From a virus (Duplodnaviria > Heunggongvirae > Uroviricota > Caudoviricetes), in the IMG/VR virus record IMGVR_UViG_2684622670_000007, positions 1-5,383 of that record: 5,383 nucleotides of DNA. The stretch is one strand, 5' to 3'. The notes under the pieces are model-generated. The model was not told where the DNA came from and ran no database searches. It was given only the letters and a program-made list of their open reading frames with translations. This document shows, piece by piece, positions 1-4,701 of the stretch (positions are counted from its first letter, which is position 1; every line of letters starts with the position of its first letter). The position numbers and the translations under genes are program-made.

Positions 1-436
1 GTACCGGTTTAACCTCGTCACGGGGCTTTCTGATGGCTGAAAGACGCTTTACAAGTTCATCCATCGCCTGACTCGATGCGTCGATGGTTCCGCTTTGGAT
101 TGGTTCACGCATTTCATCCATGATTTCCAGCACCAGACGGCGGTGATAGTTATCCGCGACCATTCCGGCATATCCCTTCAGGTTTGCGGCACTCGGGCAG
201 TTTTTGCTGGTCATCAGGATTGACGTGAAATGCTCCTCTCCGCACGCCTCGGCAACCATCAGCGCGTCGATTAGGTTTCTGTTTCGCGCCTGCTTCCGGA
301 TAACCTCGAAGGCTTTCCGGTAGAGCGGAATTGAAAACGCTTCCGGCTCAAGCGTTGCCAGAACGTCACTGGCAGTTGGTGTTAATCCACCAATCAGCAG
401 GCCACCGATAACGCTCGCTTCGATATCCTGTTTCAT
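1..436 (-). CDS. Replicative DNA helicase, DnaB family (phage P22 gene 12-type), N-terminal ~145 codons only; gene continues past the left edge
   Basis: Manual minus-strand translation from ATG (revcomp 434-436) gives [17 protein letters not shown]...[18 protein letters not shown]..., matching the conserved DnaB N-terminal domain (E. coli DnaB ...EAEQSVLGGLML...NTPSAANISAYADIV...). The start overlaps the stop of the upstream O-like gene (ATGA), suggesting translational coupling. Not in the ORF track because it is truncated by the window edge. Confidence 0.7.
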
Positions 437-1380
437 GCAATCCCCCTGTCTGCAAACTTTCCTTCCCGTACTCCCGTTAACGAATCTTCCCTCAGCAGGT
501 AATCAAAATCTGCCGTCCAGCCCGTGTCGTTGTCTCCGAAGTAAAACGGCTTGGCCTGATGCACAAACGCCCTGACATACGCTCTGAAACCGTCCACGTT
601 TGGCGTTTTCAGTTGCGGGATAATTTTCTTCAGGCGGCGTTTGCGTTTCTCGTTGACCGCAACAGCGTGTGGAAGTCTGTCACCGACTTCGGTGTTGTAG
701 GCGTTCAGGAAGGATTCGTAGTCGATTCGTTCTGCCTTGCGACGTTCAGGTTTAACCTGCCAATCGCCTCCCCCATTGGGGGGTAGGGGGGTATTATTTA
801 TATTCTTGTTAATACCTTCTTGTTCATGATGTGCGGTTGTTTGTGCGGCTTCATGTGCGCTTTCATGTGCGGCATGTACTCTGAAAGCCGCGCCATTACT
901 GGCTTCGTCATGTGCGGCATCATGTGCGGTTGTTTGTGCGGCTTCATGTGCGGGTGAATCGTCCGTTTTTTGAGCATATTCATGGTAATTTGTGATGGTA
1001 ATCACACGACCTTTTTGCTTCTCTCCATCAATGGTGATCATCTCCTCTTTCACAAAAACCTGAAGCATCCGCTCAACCTGATCACGGCTTGCCGGCTTGC
1101 CATGCCTGTCGCATAACTGAAGACCTAAATCAGCTGCTGTCACAACCAGTTGACCGGGTTGCAGATGCCATTCATGACCTTTGAAATTCGCTTTGTATGG
1201 CTTTCTGGCGGCATTCAGGAGAAGGTTTTCCCACAGGGTGCGAAGATAAACATCTTTCGCCCATGACTGTTTCAGAATGCTCCGGTACAACGGAATGTAA
1301 CCAGTTTTCTGGTTCTCCATCCTGTTGCTCCTGCGCTCGTGTGCGGCGCTGAAATCGTAGATTTTTGCTGTATTGCTCAT
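433..1380 (-). CDS. Replication initiation protein, lambda O / P22 gp18-like (315 aa)
   Basis: N-terminus MSNTAKI... resembles lambda O (MTNTAKI...). Sits downstream of cII and upstream of the helicase, as in lambdoid replication modules. The central low-complexity linker ([17 protein letters not shown]...) is encoded by the iteron arrays. A Shine-Dalgarno-like AGGCAGGT precedes the ATG. Confidence 0.85.
790..953. repeat. Putative phage replication origin inside the O-like gene: two arrays of four 12-bp-spaced iterons (core TGTGCGG) plus a flanking AT-rich segment
   Basis: TGTGCGG cores (one TGTGCGC variant) start at 830, 842, 854, 866 and at 911, 923, 935, 947, giving an exact 12-bp period within each array. 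A 35-bp unit at 825-859 is repeated at 918-952 with 34/35 identity. The AT-rich stretch 790-824 lies immediately downstream in the O reading direction, the same iteron-then-AT-rich order as lambda ori. Confidence 0.6.
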
Positions 1381-1382
1381 AA

Positions 1383-1655
1383 CTACCTGCCTTGACGAAA
1401 GACCTTAAGAACATCGTTAAACTGACTTACGGATATGTCTTCTTTGAGCAGCTTTTCCAGAAATGCGTTTGGAATGAACGTATATCCCTCCTCTTTTGGT
1501 AGGGACGGGAGCAACGCCCTCGCCTCAGCCTTCAGAAGCTCAGTTCTGGCAACTTTCACAAAAGAGATTTGAGTTCTTTCATCAATGGAACGAAGGAAGC
1601 GCAAACGCTTAACTTCTTTGTGTGTATCAGGTGGATTAAAGCCTTTGTTTCGCAT
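1383..1655 (-). CDS. Hypothetical protein (90 aa) between cII and the O-like gene
   Basis: Internal ATG (revcomp 1653-1655) is preceded by GAGGTAA at good spacing. The 146-aa version in the ORF track would overlap the cII-like gene by about 145 bp in another frame, so the shorter start is preferred. The stop lies 2 nt before the O-like ATG. No homologue recognised by eye. Confidence 0.5.
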   Translation of the reverse strand: MRNKGFNPPDTHKEVKRLRFLRSIDERTQISFVKVARTELLKAEARALLPSLPKEEGYTFIPNAFLEKLLKEDISVSQFNDVLKVFRQGR

Positions 1656-1666
1656 ATAATTACCTC

Positions 1667-1735
1667 GTTGGATGTTATTAAAATTCCATTTGTATTTGAT
1701 CAGAACGCTCGGTCTTGCACACCGGGCTTTTTTTA
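1667..1735 (+). ncRNA. OOP-like antisense RNA (promoter pO-like plus intrinsic terminator), antisense to the 3' end of cII
   Basis: Perfect -10 TATAAT at 1655-1660 with a weak -35. Plus-strand hairpin 1707-1713/1721-1727 (7 bp, one G-U) followed by T7 (1728-1734) lies inside the cII 3' coding region. The predicted ~68-nt transcript would overlap cII by ~57 nt, as lambda OOP does. Confidence 0.45.
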
Positions 1736-1977
1736 TTGGTGAGTCCATCAAGCGCATACTTAAAAGCCCTGCTAATCGGACTGATGTCTGATGCCATTCC
1801 AAAAGCACACAAGACCGAAGCAATAAATCTCCAGTCCGTTCTGCTTATCTTCGATTCATGACAGCCAATCATCTTTGCCAGACCGCGCTGGGTAAGCGTT
1901 GACAGGTTGATGAGTAAATCTGTTTCTGCGCGATCAACGTCGCGCTGTGATAGTTTGCTGTAACTTGTTTGTTCCAT
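1678..1977 (-). CDS. cII: cII-like transcriptional activator (99 aa)
   Basis: The translation aligns with lambda CII from recall: HTH region ...ESKISRTDW... and C-terminus ...LTNKKSPVCKTERSDQIQMEF versus lambda ...LTNKKRPAATERSEQIQMEF. Position downstream of cro and nutR is as expected. Confidence 0.85.
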   Translation of the reverse strand: MEQTSYSKLSQRDVDRAETDLLINLSTLTQRGLAKMIGCHESKISRTDWRFIASVLCAFGMASDISPISRAFKYALDGLTNKKSPVCKTERSDQIQMEF

Positions 1978-1987
1978 TTCTTATGAT
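1955..1987 (+). promoter_or_regulatory. PRE-like cII-dependent promoter: TTGC-N6-TTGT (1955-1968) with candidate -10 TATGAT (1982-1987), directed toward cI and antisense to cro
   Basis: Lambda CII binds TTGC-N6-TTGC repeats flanking the -35 of PRE, located over the first codons of cII on the opposite strand. The same geometry is seen here (cII ATG = revcomp 1975-1977). The -10 is inferred from spacing. Confidence 0.5.
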
Positions 1988-2004
1988 TTCCAATAGTGAA
2001 TATT

Positions 2005-2027
2005 ACGCATCTGTTGATGCGTTTTTT
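2005..2027 (+). terminator. Intrinsic-terminator-like hairpin plus T-run on the plus strand in the cro-cII intergenic region
   Basis: ACGCATC (2005-2011), loop tgtt, GATGCGT (2016-2022), then a T-run through 2027. On the minus strand (cII leader) the same hairpin is preceded by an A-run and is not terminator-like. Function uncertain. Confidence 0.35.
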
Positions 2028-2028
2028 G

Positions 2029-2067
2029 TGGGGACGAATCATCCCCGACCTGATTGTTTAAAGAGCG
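2029..2067 (-). promoter_or_regulatory. nutR-like site: boxA (minus-strand CGCTCTTTAAACAA, plus coords 2054-2067) and boxB hairpin (plus coords 2029-2047)
   Basis: boxA is close to the recalled consensus CGCTCTTTAACAA. The hairpin GGGGA-ugauucg-UCCCC reads the same as the one downstream of PL (3761-3779). It lies between cro and cII, as lambda nutR does. Confidence 0.6.
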
Positions 2068-2074
2068 GTGTTAC

Positions 2075-2299
2075 TTATGCTGCCTGATTCGGTTTTGGAA
2101 ACAGGTGTGGCAAATCGGGGCGAATTTCGTAAGCCTTGATCTGCCCTCCAGTGGCGTTAACGATGGCGGTAACTTTCTCTGGAGAGACCAACCCGCCTTT
2201 CAGCCATTTGTGTACTGCTGGCTGCGTTACACCACACTTGTCGGCAAGGCGCTTTTGGCTACCGACAATTTTCAAGGCTCGTTGAATTACTAAATTCAT
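2075..2299 (-). CDS. cro: Cro-like repressor, HTH_XRE family (74 aa from the preferred start; ORF track extends to 2320)
   Basis: HTH segment GSQKRLADKCGVTQPAVHKW. First gene downstream of predicted PR. The ATG at 2297-2299 is preceded by AGAGGT at 7-nt spacing, whereas the ATG at 2318-2320 has no SD and lies about 6 nt from the predicted transcription start. Confidence 0.75.
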   Translation of the reverse strand: MNLVIQRALKIVGSQKRLADKCGVTQPAVHKWLKGGLVSPEKVTAIVNATGGQIKAYEIRPDLPHLFPKPNQAA

Positions 2300-2410: not shown

Positions 2411-3118
2411 ATGAAAACATTCGCAGAAAGACTAAATGCAGCCATGAGCTCAGCAGGTGTATCGCAATCACAGCTTGCTGACATGGTTGGAATATCTCAG
2501 CCAGCCATACAGAAGATGTCATCCGGTAAAACAAACGGATCTCGCAAGATGGTTGAATTAGCCAATGCTTTAAAAGTACGCCCTGAATGGCTTAGCTCTG
2601 GTATTGGTGAAATGAGGGATGGTACACATGAAGAACCATCCAATGTCCGTGAATCATCTTTAAAAGCTGTGGTATGGGAAGATATTAAAAGAAACGATGA
2701 CGAGTTTGTCGCGTTGCCTCTTCTTAACGTTTCGCTTTCAGCTGGAAGCGGTAGCTGCGAGCTAGAGGAATCATCAGAGTTCTCTTTGGTTTTCAGAAAG
2801 TACTATCTGAAAAAGATGGGGGTATCTGAAAGATCAGCCAAGCTAGTTAGGGTTGTAGGGCAAAGCATGGAACCAACGCTTCACGACGGAGATGTTGTTG
2901 GTGTTAACACACAAGATACCACAATCAGAGATGGTAAAACCTACGCTATTTGCCAGTCTGATTTGTTACGAGTAAAAACATTAATCGCCACCCCTACATC
3001 GGTGATAATCAGATCAATAAATCGCGAAGAGTACCCAGATGAAGTAATGGATAGAGATGAATTTCATGAAACCGTAAGGATTATTGGCAGAGTATTCTGG
3101 TCGTCTCATAGTTGGTAA
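2411..3118 (+). CDS. cI: CI-like prophage repressor: N-terminal HTH_XRE domain plus C-terminal S24 (LexA-type) autopeptidase domain
   Basis: HTH QSQLADMVGISQPAIQKM; S24 motifs GQSMEP (Ser nucleophile) and RVKTL (Lys); candidate Ala-Gly cleavage site in LSAGSG. The ORF track begins at TTG 2381, but the ATG at 2411 (MKTFAERL...) fits the promoter geometry. Confidence 0.9.
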   Translation: MKTFAERLNAAMSSAGVSQSQLADMVGISQPAIQKMSSGKTNGSRKMVELANALKVRPEWLSSGIGEMRDGTHEEPSNVRESSLKAVVWEDIKRNDDEFVALPLLNVSLSAGSGSCELEESSEFSLVFRKYYLKKMGVSERSAKLVRVVGQSMEPTLHDGDVVGVNTQDTTIRDGKTYAICQSDLLRVKTLIATPTSVIIRSINREEYPDEVMDRDEFHETVRIIGRVFWSSHSW

Positions 3119-3158: not shown

Positions 3159-3455
3159 ATGGAATTTCTGATAGTTTTTGTTGTTGTTTTGGTCATCATT
3201 CTTTTTGTTTTGCTAAGCATTAGCAAAAAGCTATCTCAAACGATTGAACATAGCTCTAATCGCGCAAAAGAAGAAGACCATCTAATTGATATAAAAGAGA
3301 TTCTCTCTGATATAAAAATCACATTAGATGAAATAAAATACACAACAGATCTAATTGAACAGTATAAAATACCAACCCCAAACGAGAGAAAAGCAATAGA
3401 TCAATATCGTATTGACTTAGAAATCGACGAAATGCTAAGCAAAAGAAAAGACTAA
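3159..3455 (+). CDS. Small membrane protein (98 aa): one N-terminal transmembrane helix then a charged, probably coiled-coil domain; sits in the position of lambda rexAB and is probably co-transcribed with cI
   Basis: Strong SD GGAGG (3150-3154) before the ATG. Hydrophobic residues 3-21 (FLIVFVVVLVIILFVLLSI) are followed by a K/E/D-rich region. Markedly AT-rich compared with the flanking phage genes. Lies 41 bp downstream of cI and is followed by an intrinsic terminator. Confidence 0.6.
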   Translation: MEFLIVFVVVLVIILFVLLSISKKLSQTIEHSSNRAKEEDHLIDIKEILSDIKITLDEIKYTTDLIEQYKIPTPNERKAIDQYRIDLEIDEMLSKRKD

Positions 3456-3460
3456 AAACA

Positions 3461-3490
3461 CCCGGCCTCAGCGCCGGGTTTTCTTTTCCT
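3461..3490 (+). terminator. Rho-independent terminator ending the cI operon; possibly bidirectional
   Basis: Stem CCCGGC (3461-3466) / GCCGGG (3473-3478), 6-nt loop, then TTTTCTTTTCC. An A-run upstream (3454-3458) gives a U-run for the opposite strand. Confidence 0.75.
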
Positions 3491-3608: not shown

Positions 3609-3691
3609 AATACCTTTGTTATCCATCACCTATAACTTATTTACCATAAAATATAAACTAAGTTATTGACCACACCTATAACCTAAGTTAT
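3609..3691. promoter_or_regulatory. Left operator region: OL1 3678-3691 (ATAACctaaGTTAT, perfect), OL2 3653-3666 (one mismatch), weaker OL3-like site 3609-3622
   Basis: Same 14-bp ATAAC-N4-GTTAT family as the OR sites. OL1 and OL2 are 25 bp apart and overlap the predicted PL hexamers. Confidence 0.6.
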
Positions 3692-3740: not shown

Positions 3741-3779
3741 GCTCTTTAACATTGATGGAATGGGGATGATTCGTCCCCA
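3741..3779 (+). promoter_or_regulatory. nutL-like site: boxA GCTCTTTAACA (3741-3751) and boxB hairpin (3761-3779)
   Basis: boxA-like motif followed 9 nt later by a hairpin, TGGGGA-tgattcg-TCCCCA, that matches the nutR hairpin at 18 of 19 positions. Lies between PL and the N-like gene. Confidence 0.6.
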
Positions 3780-3933: not shown

Positions 3934-4140
3934 GTGAAAGCAAGAGAGATTCGCAAACTCGAACGCGCTCGTAAGCACAAAGAGGCGACAGCAAAACGTA
4001 AAAATATTGACCGTGTTTCAATGGTGGTTTCGCTAGCAGGAGCGAATAGGAAGAAGGTTGAATGTGGTTCGTGCTGCCTGCCAAACGTAGCTCTTTACGC
4101 GGCAGGCTACCGGAAATCAAAACAACTGACGGCGAGGTGA
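3934..4140 (+). CDS. N: N-like transcription antitermination protein (68 aa, GTG start)
   Basis: First gene downstream of PL and nutL. Arginine/lysine-rich N-terminus (MKAREIRKLERARKHKEATAKRK). The C-terminal part resembles N proteins of P22-type phages from recall (unverified). Strong SD GGAGG (3923-3927) 6 nt before the GTG. Confidence 0.7.
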   Translation: MKAREIRKLERARKHKEATAKRKNIDRVSMVVSLAGANRKKVECGSCCLPNVALYAAGYRKSKQLTAR

Positions 4141-4161
4141 CGATCCCCCGCCGTCGAGGAA

Positions 4162-4701
4162 CTAAATTAGCTCATCAGCTTTACCAGCAAAGCGCATATA
4201 ACACTCATAGAACCAGACGTCAGGTATAACAAATTTCTCTTTACCTGACGCGCTGTAAGTCACACCTGAGCGATGGAGAAGGCCTTTTCTCATAAGAGAT
4301 AAAGCGACCGGATCGCCGTGCTTAAGTACGATTTTGTTATTTGCCATAACAGCAAATGCTAAAACCTCTTTTTCCTGAATACTCAGAGAATTGAACAGGC
4401 GCTCAGTCTCCACAATTACTTTAGCCTCATCTCTCTTACTGAGATATTTTTTATATCTGTCTGAAGATGCCAGAAATATAAACTCCATCACCCTGTTCAG
4501 AACATAACTGATACACAAAAGCATTGCGTAATACATCCAGTGATCTGGAAGTATTTCGGGGTTCCTTATATCTACCCACTCTTTAATTGATGCTGGGGTG
4601 ATTATTATCAAGGCAATTAAAATAATAAGCATATGAATTAACTGTTGTAGCGTAAGACCACGCAGGAAGAAACGTAATAGTTCCTGCCACCAGTTACTCA
4701 T
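4162..4701 (-). CDS. Membrane protein (179 aa), putative superinfection exclusion protein B (SieB)-like
   Basis: Convergent with and abutting the N-like gene, the arrangement I recall for lambda sieB and N. N-terminal hydrophobic segment (LIHMLIILIALIIITP) and soluble C-terminal domain. GGAG-type SD before the ATG. Low GC. The assignment rests on position, size and topology only. Confidence 0.5.
   Translation of the reverse strand: MSNWWQELLRFFLRGLTLQQLIHMLIILIALIIITPASIKEWVDIRNPEILPDHWMYYAMLLCISYVLNRVMEFIFLASSDRYKKYLSKRDEAKVIVETERLFNSLSIQEKEVLAFAVMANNKIVLKHGDPVALSLMRKGLLHRSGVTYSASGKEKFVIPDVWFYECYMRFAGKADELI

Follow-up and report, generated by a model that had tools for sequence, protein, structure and literature searches.

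Gene map and early-regulation signals

The 5.4-kb window (the whole stretch of 5,383 nucleotides analysed here) is, from its open reading frames and Pfam matches, the region for immunity and early regulation in a lambdoid prophage of Escherichia coli. Along the window, the genes and one terminator of lambda type are arranged as follows.

433-1380, minus strand: O-like replication protein (open reading frame and Pfam)
Minus strand: DnaB-like fragment (open reading frame and Pfam)
1678-1977, minus strand: cII gene (open reading frame; Pfam Phage_CII, E = 1e-33)
1707-1734, plus strand: oop-like terminator, a true homologue of that of lambda
2075-2299, minus strand: cro-like gene (Pfam YdaS_toxin, HTH_3 and P22_Cro; named 'transcriptional regulator' in RefSeq prophages)
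2411-3118, plus strand: cI-like repressor (HTH plus Peptidase_S24, Pfam)
3934-4140, plus strand: N-like antiterminator open reading frame (Pfam N_peptide, E = 3e-16)
4162-4701, minus strand: SieB (open reading frame and Pfam)

It follows from this gene map that transcription from PR proceeds on the minus strand and that establishment transcription of cI, from PRE, proceeds on the plus strand. The segment joining nutR to cII (1940-2080) is 100% identical to a prophage in E. coli Z1323CEC0019, is present in 10 of 5426 complete E. coli genomes and is identical in five E. coli prophage copies (four RefSeq genomes and the window). Among sequenced phage isolates, no match was found to nutR together with the hairpin that follows it, the nearest isolates (SH2026Stx1 and Stx phages) having the cII and boxA flanks alone in common with the window. 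The signals of the cro-cII spacer, and their counterparts upstream of the N-like gene, are listed below.

1955-1968, plus strand: predicted direct repeats for CII binding, TTGC-N6-TTGT, on either side of the PRE -35 region and within cII codons 4-8
1975-1977: cII start codon (CAT on the plus strand)
1982-1987, plus strand: predicted PRE -10 hexamer TATGAT, 13 nt past the second repeat
1987-1991, minus strand: Shine-Dalgarno-like GGAAA of cII, lambda-like
2005-2022, minus strand: stem-loop of the nutR-cII (tR1) region, PR-sense RNA ACGCAUC-AACA-GAUGCGU, 7 bp with a 4-nt loop
2005-2011, 2012-2015 and 2016-2022, plus strand: 5' arm ACGCATC, loop TGTT and 3' arm GATGCGT of the hairpin
2022-2027, plus strand: T6 run, the next bases being G and T
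2030-2046, minus strand: nutR boxB hairpin, GGGGATGATTCGTCCCC
2058-2067, minus strand: nutR boxA, CGCTCTTTAA, 11 nt upstream of boxB
3741-3778, plus strand: nutL, with boxA GCTCTTTAAC at 3741-3750 and boxB at 3762-3778, 11 nt apart

The 17-nt boxB has a single further, exact copy in the window, on the plus strand at 3762-3778 and upstream of the N-like open reading frame, whereas none would be expected by chance. The location of nutL upstream of this open reading frame fixes both the direction of the early transcripts and the identity of boxB, and the boxA/boxB arrays at 2030-2067 and 3741-3778 are a standard nutR and nutL pair. The nutR boxA, whose first base (2067) lies 8 nt beyond the stop codon of the cro-like gene on the minus strand, is kept in every relative aligned. 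Read along the minus strand, the cro-cII spacer thus consists of boxA, 11 nt, boxB, the sequence ACAAAAA, the hairpin, 27 nt containing GGAAA and the cII ATG. As the two identical boxBs stand on opposite strands, they place the hairpin, together with the gene map, between nutR and cII on the PR transcript.

Regarding PRE, the predicted promoter reproduces the geometry of lambda pE base for base (repeat, 13 nt, -10 hexamer, same offset from the cII ATG), the lambda counterpart of TATGAT being AAGTAT at identical spacing. The CII repeats are invariant in close relatives and read TTGC-N6-TTGC in some. With a CII homologue encoded in the window, the locus has the sequence features of a CII-activated establishment promoter of the lambda pE/PRE type, and the original prediction, which had located PRE at these repeats and this hexamer, is borne out. 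On lambda geometry, where the PRE start is at position 38343, transcription in the window would start at about 1994/1995; counted from this start, the stem opens at about +11 and the last T of the run falls at about +33/34, so that a hairpin formerly placed about 10-35 nt past the PRE start comes to lie about 11-34 nt past it. In lambda, pE is likewise partly embedded in cII's first eight codons (PMC5869508).

The stem-loop ahead of cII and its relatives

On the plus strand the hairpin reads ACGCATC-TGTT-GATGCGT (2005-2022) and runs into T6 (2022-2027). The same bases, 2005-2022, make the hairpin of the minus strand, on which the T6 run becomes the A-rich spacer ACAAAAA(A) leading from boxB to the hairpin. 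That a hairpin with a T-run occupies 2005-2027 of the plus strand, as had been noticed at the outset, agrees with the sequence itself, with a consensus terminator scan of that strand (7 pairs, of which 4 are G-C, a loop of 4 and the tail TTTTTGTGGG) and with RNA folding (-9.6 to -10.1 kcal/mol for the hairpin, and about -10 kcal/mol on either strand). A 31-nt piece carrying the hairpin has z = -4.4 on the plus strand and z = -6.7 on the minus strand, none of 200 shuffles being equally stable. A lenient terminator pattern is found 12 times in the window against 4.7 +/- 2.5 times per shuffled window and is hence not rare, which makes the motif by itself weak evidence; it is the conservation of the hairpin, with covariation, across related phages that raises it above chance. 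A search of Rfam returned no relevant family, the sole hit being a sub-threshold snoRNA match at 970-1055. A possible long-range interaction between the end of cro (GUUUCCAA) and the Shine-Dalgarno region of cII, taken from a 125-nt fold, was rejected, as the longest duplex averaged 6.1 nt against 5.9 nt after shuffling over 124 regions.

The conservation of the hairpin emerges from about 396 loci encoding CII relatives, taken from species genomes and viral contigs, which reduce to 125 distinct 90-nt upstream regions. In nearly all of these 125 regions, lambda's included, a stable hairpin ends 27-38 nt before the cII ATG, and its sequence falls into about 20 unrelated families. Among the types encountered are those of lambda, of 933W and the Stx phages (ACTCATC-GAAA-GATGAGT), of phi21 and PA28, a P22-nut-associated type (TATGCGT-TTCC-ACGCATA) and the type of the window; a Tatumella-type hairpin was left out of the tallies because its fuzzy pattern gave junk matches. 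The window and 933W-type hairpins form one family, [AG]C[TGC]CATC-N4-GATG[ACG]G[TC], in which the third pair occurs as G-C, U-A, C-G and U.G and in which covariation exceeds that of all 500 shuffles and of all slid controls. In the GTGGCAG family, one pair occurs as A-U, G.U and G-C. Covariation beyond shuffles and slid controls argues that the hairpin is a selected structure and not a chance palindrome. As far as sequence comparison reaches, the survey identifies a stem-loop of variable sequence, 27-38 nt ahead of cII, as a component of nearly every nutR-cII junction.

The T-run and the strand on which the hairpin acts

The same regions were compared for the bases that lie immediately 5' of the hairpin in the PR sense, where the window carries the A-run read as T6 on the plus strand. 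For the window and for loci related to it (given by their L numbers), these bases are as follows.

Window: A6
L016, L181 and L182: A5
L192 (the closest relative, with a similar boxB): CAACCA
L017 and L189: AACAACTA
L188: AACAACC
L191: ACATAACC
L190: CTTAAA

The T-run is thus missing in L192, L017 and L188-L191 despite the same hairpin, and it is also missing in the 933W-type phages, in which the hairpin is followed in the PRE sense by GATTAATT or TCTTAATT. A terminator score d of the d'Aubenton-Carafa type, computed on both strands of the 125 regions, is positive in the PRE sense in only 4 of these 125 distinct regions. The window reaches d = +7.4 to +12.6 in this sense (tail score 4.0-4.5), which is the top of the 125 regions and lies below its own oop-like terminator (+20) and the 3460 terminator (17). 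In the PR sense, the hairpin of the window has d = -55.5, with the tail AAUAUUCAC and no U-tract, and d is positive in one of the 125 regions and negative in the other 124. Runs of at least 5 A's are again seen downstream of boxB in several unrelated hairpin families, separated from the hairpin by 0 to 15 nt, a variable distance which fits an A/C-rich, G-poor spacer and not a positioned U-tract. The comparison with related cro-cII regions that the original prediction had proposed as a check therefore finds conservation of the hairpin but not of the T-run.

In the PRE sense, the window has both elements of an intrinsic terminator, a stem-loop at the weak end of the range and a U-tract, without their joint conservation. 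Likewise, an antisense RNA of the OOP kind would have its components here, namely a promoter (PRE), an end resembling a terminator and complementarity to the cII leader, but most relatives lack the U-tract, so that the unit as a whole is not conserved. Judging from these comparisons, the T-run is most likely specific to the lineage of the window and gives the plus strand its terminator-like look, which would be a by-product of an A6 spacer that reads as U6 in the PRE transcript.

Position alone cannot designate the strand on which the hairpin acts, since an element lying at a constant distance from the cII ATG lies at a constant distance from the PRE start as well. Within the hairpin family of the window, pairing is retained at 90.2% in the PR sense versus 92.9% in the PRE sense, values so close that they do not pick the acting strand either. 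A test of folding energy, with hairpins selected symmetrically, showed no asymmetry between the strands, 9 families favouring PR and 10 favouring PRE (Wilcoxon p = 0.40). In several other hairpin families G.U pairs favour a PR-sense RNA, a tendency that we take as suggestive only: 4 G.U pairs of L186 are valid in the PR sense only (ddG of -10.6 to -13), the PR sense is more stable by 3.7 kcal/mol in the phi21/PA28-type hairpin and by 5-7 kcal/mol in the L015 and L342 hairpins, and, in the TATGCGT family, 3 internal G.U variants belong to the PR sense versus 1 terminal variant to the PRE sense. In a tally of G.U variant types curated by hand, about 17 belong to PR versus 5 to PRE. Regarding base composition, the C/G ratio of the minus strand is 1.9 over 2140-2063 (the end of cro and boxA), 1.29 in the intergenic region and 0.99 over the whole window, the ratio in the corresponding region of lambda being 2.0, and the spacer ACAAAAA contains no G; these values are in keeping with rut sequences around boxB, but the rise is modest. 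The locus L186 is also the sole relative with a U-tract in the PR sense.

These data bear on several readings of the element. According to one of them, the plus strand carries a working and physiologically meaningful intrinsic terminator or attenuator in the PRE leader, at which CII-activated RNAs initiated at about 1994/1995 would stop at about 2027-2029, limiting cI establishment and releasing an RNA of roughly 33 nt directed against the cII leader and tR1 hairpin, in a feedback comparable to that of OOP. Its shape is canonical (a stem of 7 bp and a loop of 4 nt, with U6 immediately behind), it is preceded by a promoter whose geometry is identical to that of lambda, and its d of 7-13, the best of 125, is in the same range as that of the oop-like (20) and 3460 (17) terminators; its stem, however, is on the weak side for a terminator (about -8 to -10 kcal/mol), the folds of the window reveal no alternative antiterminator structure, and the predicted RNA would be complementary to positions -18 to about -52 of the cII leader, sparing the Shine-Dalgarno sequence (1987-1991) and the start codon. 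The configuration is unchanged in five E. coli prophage copies and kept, as A5, in the L016/L181 group, but the five copies are near-identical, so that their agreement is uninformative on selection and has little weight, and the U-tract is missing in L192 (TGGTTGTAG), in L017/L189 (AGTTG), in L188-L191 and in all 933W-, P22-, phi21- and lambda-type regions. We hence regard this reading as unlikely; if true, it would make one hairpin serve the converging PR and PRE transcripts and would give the choice between lysis and lysogeny one more point of control. Whatever the origin of the element, a polymerase coming from PRE meets a 7-bp hairpin followed by U6, so that some termination is physically plausible: the hairpin and U6 probably stop a fraction of PRE transcripts at about +33, and because of the weak stem we would expect this termination to be weak to moderate. 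Nothing in the sequence appears to point to such termination as a selected function. The attenuator or antisense role suggested in the original prediction is thus physically possible in this lineage (d of +7 to +13) and is not supported as the reason for the element, the T-run being unconserved. The two activities could also have been combined by co-option, in the lineage of the window and independently in L016/L181, the tR1 hairpin being Rho-assisted for PR and serving as an intrinsic terminator that aborts PRE transcripts at about +33. We consider this quite improbable; it would imply that a stable RNA of about 33 nt with a U tail is released, antisense to the leader of cII, that cI establishment is tuned with feedback on cII, and that cII has at its 5' end a second control resembling OOP.

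The conserved hairpin might alternatively act near the 5' end of the cI establishment mRNA made from PRE, as a stem-loop by which this mRNA is stabilised or otherwise conditioned. Its distance from the predicted PRE start is indeed constant, at +10 to +21 across families, and in the family of the window the PRE sense pairs no less well than the PR sense. We find this very unlikely, as G.U pairs of the PR sense turn into A.C mismatches of the PRE sense in L186, the phi21 type, L015/L342 and L023, and at least 10 unpaired nt stand ahead of the stem, while 5' stem-loops of the ompA type are known to protect an mRNA solely within a few nt of its 5' end. A site acting at the DNA level, for IHF or a dimeric regulator for example, would account for a perfect 7-bp inverted repeat, and a palindrome bound by a dimer likewise predicts symmetric covariation; in lambda, an IHF site lies ahead of the cII ribosome-binding site (PMC5869508). 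The IHF consensus WATCAANNNNTTR, allowing up to 1 mismatch, does not occur near 1978-2030, and its 6 matches window-wide are no more than chance; moreover, sequence, stem length and loop length change completely from one family to another, and several hairpins have G.U pairs and are therefore not DNA palindromes, which leaves a DNA site highly improbable. That a hairpin and a T-run met by chance, functionless on both strands, would agree with the frequency of lenient terminator patterns in shuffled windows (about 4.7 each), but 0 of 200 shuffles fold as well and the position of the hairpin is kept across about 20 families with compensatory changes, so that we give this explanation next to no credence.

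Comparison with lambda tR1 and other systems

The reading that we favour, with moderate confidence, is that the hairpin corresponds, in this phage, to the stem-loop that lambda-like phages have between the nutR boxB and the cII ribosome-binding site (tR1), acting in the PR transcript. The hairpin is a new sequence variant of a known element. It has the position of a lambda-type tR1, following the nutR boxA and boxB on the PR transcript and preceding the ribosome-binding site of cII, and it has its form, a U-less stem-loop whose end is 27 nt from the cII ATG in the window and 33 nt from it in lambda. A hairpin that lacks a U-tract in the PR sense fits a Rho-dependent site. An element of tR1 or of the cII leader read on the other strand, which had initially been mentioned as an alternative, is therefore the better supported, since the hairpin is conserved and the T-run is not.

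By analogy with lambda, a polymerase moving past cro would transcribe boxA, boxB, the A/C-rich and G-poor spacer and then the hairpin, which may slow it by pausing. In the absence of N, Rho would load on C-rich, unstructured RNA near nutR and would free the PR transcript a few to a few tens of nt beyond the hairpin, before cII is translated; after 3' trimming, the hairpin would cap the cro mRNA and stabilise it. With N at boxB, the polymerase would read through into cII. In lambda, the main release sites reportedly lie about 10 nt past the hairpin, in work going back to Rosenberg et al. in 1978 and to Lau, Roberts and Wu in 1982-83. Termination at lambda tR1 is abolished in rho mutants (PMC4937328), the nutR/tR1 region of H-19B is Rho-dependent with overlapping nut and rut sites (PMC3526286) and, genome-wide, Rho-dependent transcripts end at stable, U-less stem-loops that block PNPase and RNase II (PMC6061677). 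A near-universal stem-loop ahead of cII agrees both with the classical picture of lambda tR1 and with such U-less Rho-dependent ends.

In lambda, the stem-loop of the tR1 region is located at 38302-38325 (GUGUAUGCAU-UUAUUU-GCAUACAU). The order of the parts is the same as in the window, from the cro stop through boxA, boxB, an A/C-rich spacer and a U-less hairpin to about 30 nt, the Shine-Dalgarno sequence and the ATG, the parts being named rutA/boxA, boxB and rutB before the hairpin; PRE also lies, with identical spacing, on the opposite strand of the first codons of cII. In contrast, the lambda hairpin is unrelated in sequence to that of the window, whose boxB is of a different specificity class, and Rho dependence in the window would hold by analogy. 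The spacer after boxB, just 7 nt in the window, is A6-rich, so that the opposite strand reads as a hairpin followed by U6, which that of lambda does not.

The window shares with intrinsic and bidirectional terminators, and with that of oop, a stem, a loop and U6 on the plus strand, as well as a location between converging PR and PRE. It differs from them by a U-tract that is not conserved, by a weak stem and by its PR-sense tail. For genome annotation, a hairpin beside an A-rich spacer of the rut type can hence mimic an intrinsic terminator on the opposite strand, and relatives should be checked first. With the 3' stem-loops of Rho-dependent transcripts (Dar and Sorek, 2018, PMC6061677), the hairpin has in common its stability, a size typical of intrinsic terminators and the lack of a U-tract; in that survey, rut lies just downstream of the stem-loops, whereas the presumed rut/nut is upstream in the window and in lambda.

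Among the Stx phages, the 933W-type regions of SH2026Stx1 and of Stx2a phages have cII and PRE segments near-identical to those of the window. Their hairpin is homologous, occupies the same place and differs at pair 3 by a compensatory change; these phages have another boxB and no A-run before the hairpin, hence no U-tract in the PRE sense. The likeness to H-19B is through its published Rho dependence (PMC3526286), the sequences compared being those of other phages. The phi21-like region of PA28 carries, at this junction, a different and longer hairpin.

Variation of the hairpin at the tR1 position among relatives

Among the 125 distinct cII-upstream regions compared, a single locus carries at the tR1 position a hairpin that, read in the sense of the rightward early (PR) transcript, resembles an intrinsic terminator.

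About 32-56 nt upstream of cII in L186 (IMG/VR UViG 3300011820_000001): hairpin GGCUAUGCGU-UCCU-GCGCGUGGCU

This hairpin is followed on its 3' side by UUUUCU and, as it includes four G.U pairs, it forms in the PR sense only. In 12 viral loci (L076, L079-L081 and others), another variant, ACTCATC-GAAA-GATGCGT, is mismatched (U.C) at pair 3. This variant has the appearance of a recombinant, with a 5' arm of the 933W type joined to a 3' arm of the window type, suggesting that mosaic junctions fall inside the hairpin itself.

Antitermination sites, PRE and the oop-like region

2030-2046, minus strand, and 3762-3778, plus strand: boxB copies, GGGGAUGAUUCGUCCCC
3934-4140, plus strand: N-like ORF
1650-1745, plus strand: OOP-like antisense RNA region within the 3' end of cII, with its terminator at 1707-1734

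The boxB of the window differs from the lambda, P22 and phi21 types, and the nutR segment had no match among the sequenced phage isolates in the collection searched; similar boxB sequences were found in the cII loci L192 (GGGATGTTTCGTCCC) and L012 (GGGTGATTCGCCC). Regarding the N-like ORF, its match to Pfam N_peptide is confined to the C-terminal part of the profile (positions 44-100).

When the predicted second CII half-site of PRE (1965-1968) was compared with L403-L405, it proved to read TTGT both in the window and in E2865, whereas the SJ2D, DEC9B and F2_407 prophages have the canonical TTGC, a possible source of difference in PRE strength. The OOP-like region shares 79% identity with the lambda oop strand over the aligned stretch, and contains the conserved TTCAGAACGCTCGGT motif as well as a terminator hairpin, GCTCGGT...ACCGGGC, followed by T7.

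Presumed operators and terminator-like hairpins beyond cII

2320-2400 and 3627-3691, on both sides of the cI gene: repeated ATAAC...GTTAT-type motifs
3460-3479: G+C-rich hairpin ACCCGGC...GCCGGGT
4128-4155, minus strand: 10-bp G+C-rich hairpin with the tail AGTTGTTTTG

The repeated motifs, exemplified by TATAAACTAAGTTAT and TATAACCTAAGTTAT spaced 25 nt, presumably correspond to the operators OL and OR. The hairpin at 3460-3479, with a d'Aubenton-Carafa-type score (d) of 17 on the plus strand and -1 on the minus strand, probably ends the cI operon as a timm-like terminator and possibly acts in both directions. It adjoins the end of a small membrane-protein ORF (3159-3455) and has T-rich tails on both sides. 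The hairpin at 4128-4155 lies directly downstream of sieB (4162-4701, minus strand) and reaches into the 3' end of the plus-strand N-like ORF.

The O-like gene and its neighbor

1383-1658, minus strand: 91-aa ORF, flanked by cII and the O-like gene
823-965, within the O-like replication gene: tandem repeats of 12-nt period, (T/C)TCATGTGCGG and TTGTTTGTGCGG

A Pfam search with the 91-aa ORF returned no match. The repeats, translated as a His/Ala-rich stretch, are probably origin iterons, comparable to the lambda ori located within O.
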